Shown here: piece by piece, positions 39,834-43,060 of the stretch
Layout: every line of letters starts with the position of its first letter
Numbering within the stretch: position 1 is the first letter of the stretch
Assembly: GCF_003018255.1 (NCBI RefSeq)
Contig: NZ_CP027440.1
Direction: 5' to 3' (one strand)
Length of the DNA: 64,000 nucleotides
DNA from: Escherichia coli
GTDB lineage: Bacteria; Pseudomonadota; Gammaproteobacteria; Enterobacterales; Enterobacteriaceae
Translations under genes and position numbers: made by a program
Notes under the pieces: generated by a model
Seen by the model: only the letters and a program-made list of their open reading frames with translations
What the model was told of the DNA's origin: nothing
Database searches by the model: none

Positions 39834-40607
39834 TCAGAATTTCCAGGTCAGATGGGCTGCAAGTTGCAGACCGTTATAATCATCGGTTGGGGTGTCGTAC
39901 CACACTTTACCTGCCGTCAGCCCGAGATTAAGTTGCTCAGTCAGCGGTTGAATACGTTGCAAACTGACGCTCTTCATGCTGCCGTAGCGTGTTTCTGGCG
40001 TCCAGTCATAGGTGTAAGCACCTGTTCCGCGGCTTAGCCATAGTTGCGTATAACCAGTGCCGCGCGGGTCATTCAGACGCACGGAAATCATATTGCTGTA
40101 ACTACCACCTGCATCGCTGGAGTCATAATGGGTATAGCGATAGCTGGTGATCACCGGGCCTGTATAGAGGGATACGCCGCCTTGCCAGGCATCGACTTCG
40201 ACATCATCGTAATATTTAGTGTAGCGATAACCGGTCGTGAAAAGCGTTTTTGGCAACAGGGCCAGGTTAATATCCTGACGAAAATCCTGGCGGGCAAAGA
40301 CCGGCGTATTATCCGCAAAGGCAATACCCGTTCGGGTTGTCAGCCAGTTATTCCATTTATACCAGACCGCACCCTGACCGCGAGTGGCATTGAAATGTTC
40401 AGTTTCATAATCACGACGCCCCTGGGAAAGATTAAAAAGCAGCGTTGCGTTTTCAACTTTCGCCACCAGTTCAGCATACGCTAAATTACGGTTGCCATGA
40501 TCGCCAGAATAATCGGTAAAATCGTAGCCCGCGGTAATGGAAGTTAACCCGGCATAAGCGGGCAATGTGCTAAATATTGCCGCCGCTAATAACGTCCGTT
40601 TTATCAT
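39834..40607 (-). CDS. yaiO: outer-membrane beta-barrel protein
   Basis: 257 aa, signal peptide MIKRTLLAAAIFSTLPAYA, C-terminal ...HLTWKF; last gene of the yaiS-P-X-O operon. Confidence 0.88.
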   Translation of the reverse strand: MIKRTLLAAAIFSTLPAYAGLTSITAGYDFTDYSGDHGNRNLAYAELVAKVENATLLFNLSQGRRDYETEHFNATRGQGAVWYKWNNWLTTRTGIAFADNTPVFARQDFRQDINLALLPKTLFTTGYRYTKYYDDVEVDAWQGGVSLYTGPVITSYRYTHYDSSDAGGSYSNMISVRLNDPRGTGYTQLWLSRGTGAYTYDWTPETRYGSMKSVSLQRIQPLTEQLNLGLTAGKVWYDTPTDDYNGLQLAAHLTWKF

Positions 40608-40608
40608 T

Positions 40609-41319
40609 TTAATCTCCTGTACGGATAAGTTCTTGTCGGAGTGAATAAGTTCCGGTAGGTAAATTACGTTCTACAACCACGCGCGGGCCAAGTTGCGTGT
40701 TCGGGGAAATAATTCGCCCAGGCAAAATAATAACTTGTACGCCAAGGCGTGAACGCTGCCCGATATAACAACCTAATTTATCGCATCCGGTAGCGATAAT
40801 TCCCTCTGGAGTTCGAACAGACACGGGCTGTTCATCCAGACGATGATTACTGGTTCGTACTTGTGCGCCCAAATATGCCTGGTTTGCAACTACCGAGTCG
40901 GCAATAAAGCATTGCGGACCAATCGTTGCTTCCGCTTCAATAACCGCATTTTTAATTTCGGTGGCAAAACCAATTTTTACGCCATTGCTGATTATTGTGC
41001 CAGGACGAATAAACGCATAATTACCTATCAGGCAGTTTGCGCCAATCACTACCGGACCCTGAATAACGGCACCGTGGCAAATACGGGTATTCGCGCCGAT
41101 AACAACCTCACCGGCACTTTCATCAATAATCACCTGGTCTGCAATCTGAATATTTTTCTCTTTAACATTAAGCTTCAGATAGTTTTTCAGTTCCTGTGAC
41201 AGAAGGGTGGGAATAAGCGGTTGACGCTTCCACCAGTGCGGAATAGCGGGTGGGTTTGTCGCGCTGAGGTTCGCGTCCAGTAAAAAAGGCAATAAGTCCA
41301 TAAATAATCCAGATGGCAT
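40609..41319 (-). CDS. yaiX: hexapeptide-repeat (left-handed beta-helix) acyl/acetyltransferase
   Basis: Intact 236-aa track ORF with repeated hexapeptide motifs; real start uncertain because the first ~50 codons overlap the yaiP 3' end. Confidence 0.7.
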   Translation of the reverse strand: MPSGLFMDLLPFLLDANLSATNPPAIPHWWKRQPLIPTLLSQELKNYLKLNVKEKNIQIADQVIIDESAGEVVIGANTRICHGAVIQGPVVIGANCLIGNYAFIRPGTIISNGVKIGFATEIKNAVIEAEATIGPQCFIADSVVANQAYLGAQVRTSNHRLDEQPVSVRTPEGIIATGCDKLGCYIGQRSRLGVQVIILPGRIISPNTQLGPRVVVERNLPTGTYSLRQELIRTGD

Positions 41320-42364
41320 AAGCTAATAATACATACACAACGGAAAGCGGTGCTAAAGGCACCAACAACCAGCAACGATGAAACCAGGCGCTAAATGCAC
41401 CAATAACACAAACTACGCCGACCCAGATAAGCGGGAACATTGCCAACACCACACCATGTGGCCCGGTGGTGATGAATTCATTAAACCAGGTAGTGAGATA
41501 AATCCCAACGCCATAAAGCACAACCAACAGCATAGGAAATATACTGAAGATACCGAAGCGGCTAAATAAAAGTCTTTTATGCAGGCGCATACAGACCGCG
41601 TAGCCCACAATCCAACGCCGCCAGCGACGCCATTCCTCACGCGGGCTGTTGCATTCCTGTGGGTATACGATGCAGCGATTCGCCTGCCGAATACGATAGC
41701 CGTTTGCCACCAATGTCCAGGTGAGATCAAGGTCTTCGACTTTAGTACGATCAGAGAAACCGAACTTACGCAATACATCAGTACGGAACATCCCGCAGGC
41801 ACCGCTGATAATAAACGGTGCGCCGCCCAGGAGCTGCTGTAGCGTGCGCTTCATAACAATCATCGGCAACTTTACGGTCGCGCGGATGTGCGGTAACAGA
41901 CCCGCGCCTTTCAACGCAGTAGAGGGAATGCCGCCTACGGCATCAGCACCGCGCTCTATTTCTGCCAGCATATAGCCCATTCCGTCTTGATCGGGCGGAA
42001 CATAGGTGTCGGCATCATTTAAAAAAACCTGATCGCAGGTGGCGTAATTGAGGCCATTCATTAGCGCACCACCTTTACCGGTATTTTTTTGCGTGACGGC
42101 AATAAAGCGGTCGCCCCATTTGCGTTTGACTTCCGCCATGACCGCTTCGGTATTGTCCGTGGAGCCGTCGTTAACGCAAATTACCCGGCAGAAATAAGGG
42201 TTACGCAGCAGATTATCCAGTGACTGCGCCAGACACGGGCCTTCGTTATAAGCAGGTATAATGGCGTCAATACAGCCTTTCTTTTGGCTGGGCTTACGCC
42301 TTAACGTACTCAGAAACCATAGCAATATTGCTACGGCCATACATATAAAGATCCAGGTTTTCAT
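41168..42364 (-). CDS. yaiP: family-2 glycosyltransferase, membrane-embedded (putative processive synthase)
   Basis: 398 aa; N-terminal TM helix, GT2 catalytic core (DGSTDNT, DAD, EWRRWRRW resembling QxxRW) and C-terminal TM helices. Confidence 0.85.
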   Translation of the reverse strand: MKTWIFICMAVAILLWFLSTLRRKPSQKKGCIDAIIPAYNEGPCLAQSLDNLLRNPYFCRVICVNDGSTDNTEAVMAEVKRKWGDRFIAVTQKNTGKGGALMNGLNYATCDQVFLNDADTYVPPDQDGMGYMLAEIERGADAVGGIPSTALKGAGLLPHIRATVKLPMIVMKRTLQQLLGGAPFIISGACGMFRTDVLRKFGFSDRTKVEDLDLTWTLVANGYRIRQANRCIVYPQECNSPREEWRRWRRWIVGYAVCMRLHKRLLFSRFGIFSIFPMLLVVLYGVGIYLTTWFNEFITTGPHGVVLAMFPLIWVGVVCVIGAFSAWFHRCWLLVPLAPLSVVYVLLAYAIWIIYGLIAFFTGREPQRDKPTRYSALVEASTAYSHPSVTGTEKLSEA

Positions 42365-42373
42365 GCAATTTGC

Positions 42374-43060
42374 TCAAAGAATCATTTTATGAATAACAAA
42401 ACCTTCACCCAGATCGCTATTGACCTGTTGCCCGCGAAATTGAGCAACTGCACGCAGACGCTCCGGGCGCATATAATCTCGCTGGCTCTGACTTTTATGT
42501 TTTTTTAACGCAGTCAGTTTAAGAGAAAAATATTCTTCTTTCACGGATTCAAAAACCTGAGGCATAAATGAAAGCCAGGTACTTGGTGTTTCATAGCCGA
42601 GAATTTGCGGAATAGCGCGACAGGCAACCATTGAGGCTTGATAGACTGCAAGATGATCCTGATGGCGGTCAGCATCATGCATGGTATATACACGTATAAT
42701 TTCAATATCAGAGGGAATTTGATTTTTTATGATATTTTCCAGGGCAGAAATCATATCATTGAGCTGTAAATGAGCGCGGGTGTCAGCAAAATTAAGATGA
42801 ATAGTTTGGTGGCACCCTAATATCTTTAGAGCGTTGCGTGATTCTTCGTGGCGATCGATTATTCCATCTACGCCAGAATTACCGGTAGTCATCACCACGG
42901 TAGCAATATAAATTCCTTTTTGCGCAAGGCGAGCTAGCGATGCGCCACAGCCTAATTCTATATCGTCAGGATGCGCGCCAATGGCAAGGATACCCTTTCT
43001 TTTATTTGCCGAAGAAAGGATCGCTGAATCTAAAACCTTATCCACTTTATGACACTCCAT
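42374..43060 (-). CDS. yaiS: LmbE/PIG-L-family N-acetylglucosaminyl deacetylase
   Basis: 228 aa; AHPDDIE and HxDH motifs; 9-bp gap to yaiP. Confidence 0.85.
   Translation of the reverse strand: MECHKVDKVLDSAILSSANKRKGILAIGAHPDDIELGCGASLARLAQKGIYIATVVMTTGNSGVDGIIDRHEESRNALKILGCHQTIHLNFADTRAHLQLNDMISALENIIKNQIPSDIEIIRVYTMHDADRHQDHLAVYQASMVACRAIPQILGYETPSTWLSFMPQVFESVKEEYFSLKLTALKKHKSQSQRDYMRPERLRAVAQFRGQQVNSDLGEGFVIHKMIL

Follow-up and report, generated by a model that had tools for sequence, protein, structure and literature searches.

The genes yaiP and yaiX are neighbours on the minus strand of a 64,000-nucleotide (nt) stretch of Escherichia coli DNA (contig NZ_CP027440.1, assembly GCF_003018255.1; hereafter the window), and the junction between them looks like a genuine exception among long co-directional bacterial overlaps, which are usually annotation errors. 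Comparison with related loci indicates that translation of yaiX very probably covers a conserved pair of tryptophan codons (Trp-Trp), hence an overlap with yaiP of at least 68 nt, which is real over that length provided that YaiX keeps its conserved N-terminus. The yaiX start is probably the ATG at 41301, inside yaiP, which would give an overlap of 134 nt and a YaiX of 230 amino acids (aa). With slightly less assurance we favour a dual-coding overlap of this length, in which a newly born peptide, MDLLPFLLD, would be selectively maintained and the dominant frame would alternate three times. The features concerned are:

41168..42364 (-): yaiP coding sequence (CDS), 398 aa, family-2 glycosyltransferase with C-terminal membrane helices
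40609..41319 (-): longest yaiX open reading frame (ORF), the one used by the first-pass annotation, 236 aa, hexapeptide-repeat protein
40609..41301 (-): yaiX CDS as proposed, 230 aa, beginning MDLLPFLLD, predicted left-handed beta-helix acetyltransferase
41168..41301 (-): dual-coding overlap as proposed, 134 nt
41274..41313 (-): conserved block TCTGGATTATTTATGGACTTATTGCCTTTTTTACTGGACG, candidate start region and yaiX codons 1-9
41236..41273 (-): variable YaiX linker ANLSATNPPAIPH, over the strongly conserved YaiP REPQRDKPTRY; yaiP frame dominant
41230..41235 (-): Trp-Trp (TGG TGG), which opens mature YaiX in all homologues, Clostridia included
41168..41235 (-): Trp-Trp to yaiP stop, 68 nt; yaiX frame constrained, YaiP tail relaxed

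A first-pass annotation, made from the sequence alone, had set the yaiP stop (TAA) at 41170-41168 and the ATG of the yaiX ORF at 41319-41317. Both coordinates are exact; the stretch common to the two ORFs is 41168..41319 (152 nt), with yaiX in frame +1 relative to yaiP. The genuine overlap that it considered is borne out, but its length would be about 134 nt (start at ATG 41301) and not 152. ATG 41319 stands one codon after an in-frame TAG, has no Shine-Dalgarno sequence (+0.9 kcal/mol) and is found only in Escherichia, and because of this confinement the first six codons of the 236-aa ORF (41319-41302) are probably an over-extension outside the gene. The second in-frame ATG of that ORF (codon 7) is the one at 41301-41299. 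A 176-nt query covering the overlap had matches of at least 95% identity in 4,837 of 5,426 complete E. coli genomes, and the overlap is therefore not an assembly error.

The junction in related loci

Related loci were collected by a genome scan (22) and by exact-protein look-ups (12), and the yaiP stop, the yaiX frame and the Trp-Trp codons were located in each of the 34. The N-terminus of YaiX in these loci is Met or Val and then Trp-Trp; M/V-W-W-R-E-L opens the homologues that are about 205 aa long (about 50% identity) and aligns to residues 28-33 of the window ORF. In Clostridia the genes do not overlap: after a yaiP ending in ...KVKRY-TAA there are about 20-30 nt of intergenic sequence, which contain GGAGG, with yaiX then beginning ATG-Tyr-Arg-Trp-Trp. 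Since these Clostridial genes are separate and YaiX there opens with M-Y-R-W-W, Trp-Trp is fixed as part of YaiX. In E. coli Trp-Trp lies inside yaiP, and from its first base through the last base of the yaiP stop there are 68 nt. Conservation that starts only after the yaiP stop, which the first-pass annotation had thought an orthologue alignment might reveal and which marks an annotation over-extension (class i of Palleja et al. 2008, PMC2478687), was not found; it begins at Trp-Trp, within yaiP.

In 11 loci of non-enteric Proteobacteria the overlap is 14 nt (ATGTGGTGGAATGA), and the yaiX ATG or GTG stands immediately before Trp-Trp. In these loci yaiP ends ...RDKPTRYPHVVE-TGA (pattern ...R-Y-x-x-V-V-E-TGA), and a GAGGT Shine-Dalgarno sequence is built from its Thr-Arg(AGG)-Tyr codons. 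As the comparison of loci shows, the 14-nt overlap and GAGGT make a classic coupled junction, which is the ancestral arrangement; the outgroup orthologues have either this shorter overlap or, in Clostridia, none.

Among enteric loci the yaiP stop lies 17-83 nt beyond the first Trp codon, from which the positions below are counted. The alignment shows stop, Shine-Dalgarno sequence and start as lost in the E. coli-type enteric lineage, and two of the sites concerned are:

41225..41227 (-): GCG, ancestral position of the yaiP TGA, which is lost
41236..41238 (-): CAC (His28), ancestral position of the yaiX start, ATG or GTG in non-enteric Proteobacteria

With TGA replaced by GCG, YaiP extends 19 more residues past this Ala (STAYSHPSVTGTEKLSEA) in E. 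coli, and the AGG of the ancestral Shine-Dalgarno sequence is CGC. All 15 E. coli-type junctions, which are divergent (core identity as low as 65%), have lost the start immediately before Trp-Trp and carry an ATG at -66 (= 41301); in Superficieibacter it sits at -69 owing to a one-codon insertion. Intermediate arrangements are found in Salmonella and Enterobacter copies adjoining fimbrial genes (ATG at -6, stop at +32), in one Salmonella copy (TTG at -9, stop at +17), and in Enterobacter sp. PGRG2 and Superficieibacter (ATG at -9 and at -12 respectively, stop at +68 in both). The codon at -9 is ATT in E. coli and Citrobacter and ATA in two other relatives.

In the E. coli-type enteric lineage the yaiP TGA has become a sense codon, so that YaiP reads into an unconstrained tail, and the Shine-Dalgarno sequence (AGG to CGC) and the old yaiX start (ATG to CAC) have been lost. 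Under the mechanism that we propose, the start would have moved to an in-frame ATG 66 nt further upstream (41301), one that the conserved Tyr/His-Gly codons of YaiP (TAT GGA) would already have created incidentally. The resulting 230-aa YaiX would consist of the new conserved nine residues MDLLPFLLD, a 13-residue linker free to vary, and the ancestral Trp-Trp with the beta-helix domain. Ribosomes would initiate there independently and internally; the surrounding stretch is A/U-rich and unstructured, and its Shine-Dalgarno sequence, UGGA, is no more than weak. The translational coupling or programmed reinitiation suggested by the first-pass annotation is not supported here: termination-reinitiation would not apply because the probable start precedes the yaiP stop codon by 131 nt, and the ancestral coupling signals are gone. 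A downstream start within a few nt of the upstream stop is found in the non-enteric homologues (14 nt) and not in the window, nor does the 3' end of yaiP in the window hold a correctly spaced Shine-Dalgarno sequence, the AGG of GAGGT now being CGC. The TAATG at the yaiP stop was considered as a coupling motif and rejected, as its ATG (41168-41166) is in the third frame, not that of yaiX; it opens a 12-codon ORF, MLKRKIFRLQTR (41130..41168, -).

Outside the Enterobacterales, a metagenome-assembled genome of Candidatus Ignatzschineria merdigallinarum (L009) has an enteric-type junction, with a MELLPFLLE start, ATA at -9, a yaiP that stops 83 nt after the first Trp codon and a YaiP 78% identical to that of the window; this points either to a horizontally transferred cassette or to a contaminated bin. 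In two genomes of the candidate phyla radiation (L014 and L015; Candidatus Kaiserbacteria, Paceibacterota), the YaiX homologues likewise begin at Trp-Trp, and a weakly related family-2 glycosyltransferase (24-28% identity) lies downstream of the yaiX homologue, not upstream.

Selection along the overlap and at ATG 41301

In the overlap, yaiX codon positions 1, 2 and 3 correspond to yaiP position 2, position 3 and position 1 of the next codon; the two genes are therefore antagonistic, because every third position of yaiP doubles as a second position of yaiX, and every third position of yaiX as a first position of yaiP. Alignment of 12 distinct enteric junctions needs no gaps, and the minimum numbers of changes per site class, given as [yaiX 1, 2, 3], are as follows:

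-186..-66, yaiP only: [9,68,26], yaiP pattern
-66..-39, ATG 41301 to +27: [2,2,6], very low, yaiX-like
-39..0, linker: [3,18,7], yaiP pattern (p=0.0016), mostly at yaiP third positions
Trp-Trp to +45: [11,13,26], yaiX pattern (p=0.019)
last 20 nt upstream of the stop: [6,6,7], flat
+68..+158, yaiX only: [16,11,40], yaiX pattern

With 15 sequences, the counts from Trp-Trp to +45 become [18,14,31] (p=0.023). Over the whole of 41168..41235, mean pairwise differences per site at yaiX positions 1, 2 and 3 are 0.216, 0.249 and 0.462, which resembles the yaiX-only region downstream. The downstream frame is under purifying selection within the overlap. Amino-acid identity over this stretch is 0.63 for YaiX vs 0.44 for the YaiP tail (after ...RYSALVE); the latter value is like that of an out-of-frame translation (0.50), and variation is highest at yaiP first positions. 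The tail has the character of a lineage-specific, weakly constrained C-terminal extension, and on these alignments it is to be regarded as an unconstrained passenger. From the site-class patterns it follows that the switch of constraint from yaiP to yaiX sits at the ancestral gene boundary.

Synonymous variation was scanned with a sliding window of nine codons over all of yaiP (382 windows). Third-position changes per window had a mean of 14.1 (standard deviation 3.4), and the global minimum, 2, falls at YaiP residues 352-363, centred on ATG 41301 (TGG ATT ATT TAT GGA CTT ATT GCC TTT TTT ACT GGA). Ten non-enteric loci that keep the ancestral start have no dip at the homologous site (18-20 vs a mean of 17.1). 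The conserved block 41274..41313 overlies YaiP residues 351-364, at the end of the last membrane helix, and in 15 enteric sequences it reads ATGGA[C/T/A] [T/C]T[A/G] TT[G/A] ..., with YaiX keeping M-D/E-L-L-P-F-L-L-D. The block varies at yaiX third positions: codon 3 of YaiX, Leu, is TTA, CTA, CTG or TTG, and the same changes make YaiP L, F, P, I or T. Variation of this kind bears the mark of selection on the yaiX frame, and the new N-terminal peptide of YaiX appears itself to have come under selection. The low-variation signal extends some 12 nt further upstream than the ATG, which is what one would expect where translation starts. Near ATG 41301 the RNA has less structure than 195 of 200 shuffled sequences (z=+1.63), and the site is in the 97th percentile of the least-structured positions of the operon, in keeping with a start region; a stable RNA structure is therefore rejected as the cause of the synonymous-site conservation. 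A scan of 40500-42500 against Rfam gave nothing meaningful (best match rne5, 12.6 bits vs a 180-bit cut-off).

The 230-aa YaiX was modelled with AlphaFold2 from an 85-sequence alignment, with a mean predicted local distance difference test score (pLDDT) of 91.2 and a predicted template modelling score of 0.89 (a model from a 30-sequence alignment, mean pLDDT 57.6, was too poor and was not used). Residues 21-50, which comprise Trp-Trp and the overlap-encoded residues after it, have pLDDT 87-91, and the core consists of regular short strands at pLDDT 97-99. Among solved structures the best match is the C-terminal acetyltransferase domain of Sulfolobus tokodaii ST0452 (E=4e-13, 34% identity, about 187 aligned columns), followed by GlmU and LpxD, all three at a Foldseek probability of 1.00. 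YaiX also matches the Pfam family Hexapep PF00132 (E=7.2e-19, passing the cut-off) and the NCBIfam archaeal GlmU model at model positions 233-393. Tandem hexapeptide repeats in a left-handed parallel beta-helix are thus found both by Pfam and in the model, and YaiX would be a putative acyltransferase of the hexapeptide-repeat class. Like the ST0452/GlmU family, it has hexapeptide repeats and a predicted left-handed beta-helix; unlike them, it stands alone without a nucleotidyltransferase part, has its own Trp-Trp segment and lies in a putative exopolysaccharide cassette. MDLLPFLLD might serve to anchor the acetyltransferase, either at the membrane or on the YaiP synthase.

Weighing the start of yaiX

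Several points weigh against a start at ATG 41301. The conservation of the ATG was set aside as evidence in its own right: it is forced by the YaiP Tyr/His-Gly codons and is also seen in several non-enteric loci that start at Trp-Trp, so that its presence alone proves nothing. When YaiP codons were resampled synonymously, the +1 frame was open from ATG 41301 to Trp-Trp in 24% of trials and from the ATG to the yaiP stop in 5.5%; an open frame across the overlap is mildly improbable by chance, but it can arise in this way. Enteric relatives with an ATG near Trp-Trp (-6, -9, -12) show that a proximal start can suffice. The Shine-Dalgarno sequence of ATG 41301 is weak (-3.1 kcal/mol vs a yaiP background mean of -2.4), residues 1-20 are modelled at pLDDT 59-67 only, and the NCBI Prokaryotic Genome Annotation Pipeline (PGAP) consistently places the start at codon 40 or beyond. 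At 27 nt the conserved block is short, and its 10 changes give p=0.2 by themselves; the 12-15 sequences are related, so the chi-square and p-values overstate independence. Both the translation of YaiX and its N-terminus are read from sequence. Shine-Dalgarno energies do not separate the start candidates, which are all weak (+1.9 to -4.3 kcal/mol, compared with -7.4 for yaiO; yaiS and yaiP are also weak), and local RNA structure does not separate ATG 41301 from CTG 41190, both being very unstructured. The other candidates are:

41188..41202 (-): two CTG starts chosen by PGAP, 41202-41200 and 41190-41188
41131..41133 (-): in-frame GTG, yaiX codon 63; polymorphic; a 174-aa protein cluster starts there
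41242..41244 (-): ATT (Ile26), near-cognate candidate, homologous to the ATG of Enterobacter sp. PGRG2

The first-pass annotation saw no in-frame ATG or GTG near the yaiP stop and allowed for a non-canonical start further downstream. An in-frame GTG does exist at 41133-41131, 35 nt past the stop, and would give a 174-aa protein without overlap; CTG 41202 or 41190 would give 197 or 193 aa and overlaps of 35 or 23 nt, the upstream open frame being accidental in each case. Such a downstream start, which we regard as unlikely, is the one used in PGAP annotations and in large public clusters (193 aa, 1,845 members; 174 aa, 1,174 members), and the beta-helix domain itself begins near residue 53; but it removes an N-terminus conserved from Clostridia to Proteobacteria, with Trp-Trp 68 nt upstream of the yaiP stop, and the stretch from Trp-Trp to the stop is under yaiX-frame constraint and confidently modelled (the 45 nt upstream of CTG 41190 show yaiX-frame periodicity and pLDDT 87-91). 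CTG 41190 has AGGA just upstream (-4.3 kcal/mol) and a 99th-percentile unstructured context, but the AGGA ends 1 nt before the codon, which by established spacing rules is too close for a working Shine-Dalgarno sequence. The codon at +45 from Trp-Trp is always NTG (CTG, GTG, ATG or TTG), a pattern explained by the protein, since these codons all stand for hydrophobic residues. GTG 41133 has no Shine-Dalgarno sequence and reads GTA in many E. coli, including strain 10 and K-12-like strains; CUG initiates in E. coli at only some 1-2% of the AUG level (bioRxiv 10.1101/063800). No downstream start explains the synonymous-site minimum at 41301, and neither does the near-cognate ATT 41244, which lies 9 nt before Trp-Trp and would make the overlap 77 nt. 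There the start would have been weakened in place from ATG to ATT: the same codon is the annotated ATG start (MLPWW) in Enterobacter sp. PGRG2, one Salmonella copy has TTG in its place, ATG occurs at -6 or -12 in other enterics, the use of AUU as an E. coli start is proven for infC and pcnB, and the PGAP alignment of the K-12 yaiX pseudogene begins precisely there. The codon is ATA in two relatives, though, AUU and AUA initiate at about 1-2% of AUG, the site has no Shine-Dalgarno sequence (+0.4 kcal/mol) and a GC-rich structured context (28th percentile), and the yaiX-frame conservation of MDLLPFLLD is again not accounted for, which together make this start improbable.

Marginally less probable still is that the yaiX start is decaying, with little or no translation in E. 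coli and the upstream open frame a residue. No candidate has a good Shine-Dalgarno sequence, the locus is often damaged in E. coli (an insertion sequence, IS2, in K-12 yaiX; yaiS truncated or incomplete), and the region is missing from about 10% of complete genomes. Yet yaiX is under clear purifying selection among enterics (downstream [16,11,40]), the arrangement is kept over the 15 divergent junctions with core identity down to 65%, yaiS and yaiP of the same operon likewise lack a strong Shine-Dalgarno sequence, and a repaired K-12 yaiX is functional: with the same 5' region as in the window, it gives a YaiP-dependent clumping phenotype (PMC3531124), so some yaiX start works. By far the least probable reading is a programmed +1 frameshift on a run of six T (GCC TTT TTT ACT, 41285-41274) yielding a YaiP-YaiX fusion instead of, or beside, a separate YaiX. 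The yaiX frame is indeed +1 and open across the run, the run is part of the most conserved block, and a +1 slip would leave tRNA-Phe able to re-pair. The run itself is not conserved, since E. whittamii has TTT GTT, which breaks it, and Enterobacter PGRG2 has the altered form TTT TTC, and for this reason a frameshift is unlikely; no stimulatory rare or stop codon follows it, and the ancestral and Clostridial homologues are clearly separate proteins. A conserved ATG stands 15 nt before the run and DLL between them is conserved in the yaiX frame, which a frameshift starting at the run would not need. The marks of programmed +1 frameshifting (conserved site, stimulator, no independent start) are thus not seen here.

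Known overlaps, public annotation and the cassette

The closest counterparts of the window's junction are the non-enteric pairs (Stenotrophomonas, Pseudomonas viridiflava, Sphingomonas, Acinetobacter), which are like it in gene order, families, +1 frame and Trp-Trp; they differ in the 14-nt overlap (ATGTGGTGGAATGA), the GAGGT and the start at Trp-Trp; their stop, start and Shine-Dalgarno sequence are lost in the window, whose own overlap is at least 68 and probably 134 nt. In the survey of Palleja et al. (2008), none of the 715 overlaps between co-directional genes that exceeded 60 base pairs (bp) was real, and the longest accepted one was holD-rimI, at 32-56 bp (PMC2478687). The yaiP-yaiX pair resembles holD-rimI as a co-directional, out-of-frame overlap conserved among enterics, with conservation visible in both proteins, but is two to four times longer and beyond the survey's 60-bp limit. 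Under the criteria of that survey it would fall in class v (5' and 3' extension) and be flagged as an error; here both extensions are lineage-wide facts of sequence and the selective signal is a mosaic. A general model of overlap origin, in which a lost stop or start is replaced by one inside the neighbouring gene (PMC3887535), fits the pair, with stop loss lengthening yaiP and start loss moving the yaiX start into yaiP; the pair goes beyond the model in that both events occurred at one junction and intermediates survive in relatives. If true, the overlap of 134 nt would be more than twice the longest co-directional overlap accepted in 2008, and its history would be traceable, the ancestral 14-nt junction, the intermediates and the derived 134-nt overlap all being present in living relatives. 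It is a modest, well-bounded finding on one gene pair, and no new mechanism.

Over thousands of E. coli genomes yaiX has been deposited with at least five starts (236, 230, 197, 193 and 174 aa). PGAP chose CTG 41202 (197 aa) in the genome closest to the window and CTG 41190 (193 aa) in another, and the 193-aa and 174-aa clusters mentioned above coexist with one of 230 aa (1,737 members). A paper of 2026 cites the 236-aa form, taken from KEGG, and reports that ampicillin resistance rises on over-expression of this form or of a 71-aa K-12 fragment (PMC13058169). Searches of the literature on yaiX, and on yaiP, yaiO and yaiS, yielded no start-codon data. The 41319 start and the CTG starts of PGAP are probably wrong, because the yaiX start would have moved to the ATG inside yaiP. 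The PGAP starts cut off a conserved, structured N-terminal segment, and the correct start matters for cloning and expressing intact YaiX.

In the window, frmA-frmR-yaiO-yaiX-yaiP-yaiS lie in this order on the minus strand, and tauA comes next, on the plus strand. YaiO is an outer-membrane barrel protein and YaiS a deacetylase of the PIG-L type; YaiP matches Pfam PF00535 (E=1.2e-27) and, under the cut-off of that model, NCBIfam TIGR03937 (E=1.2e-28), its similarity to PgaC/IcaA being weak. Deacetylase, synthase, acetyltransferase and outer-membrane barrel form a putative exopolysaccharide cassette, and this uncharacterised cassette, to which yaiX belongs, is linked to cell clumping. The yaiX gene is intact in the window and split by IS2 in K-12-like strains, where the element (L003, 1445..3416) lies near codon 100-101 of the 236-aa ORF and leaves a 5' pseudogene fragment and a 147-aa 3' ORF annotated 'transferase'; the 71-aa 'YaiX' of the 2026 paper is the K-12 fragment of the split gene.

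Second, diverged copies of yaiS-yaiP-yaiX-yaiO adjoin fimbrial or adhesin genes (Fimbrial, PapG_C/MrpH_C, PapB) on contigs of Salmonella, Enterobacter, E. coli and others (L026-L030, L032, L034, L036, L037). Some of them are near insertion-sequence or plasmid-type genes, which suggests that the cassette travels with adhesion loci. In E. coli genomes, 27-30 matches are on plasmids. The yaiX stop and yaiO start are joined as TAAAATG (40605..40611, -) with a strong AGGAG Shine-Dalgarno sequence, tightly and without overlap; the two genes overlap by 4 nt in the Salmonella and Enterobacter copies. Between the yaiS stop and the yaiP start (42362..42376, -) there are 9 nt and no overlap. In the window yaiS (42374..43060, -) is full length, 228 aa, aligning through the C-terminal ...HKMIL of its homologues; K-12-like strains have a premature stop (after ...KKHKS), and PGAP labels yaiS 'incomplete, missing C-terminus' in two E. 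coli genomes, the nearest to the window included. A 39-codon ORF, MNNKTFTQIAIDLLPAKLSN... (42389..42508, +), runs antisense to yaiS at its 3' end, a short way upstream of yaiP; PGAP annotates it in related genomes as the small protein YkiC, for which Pfam has a family.

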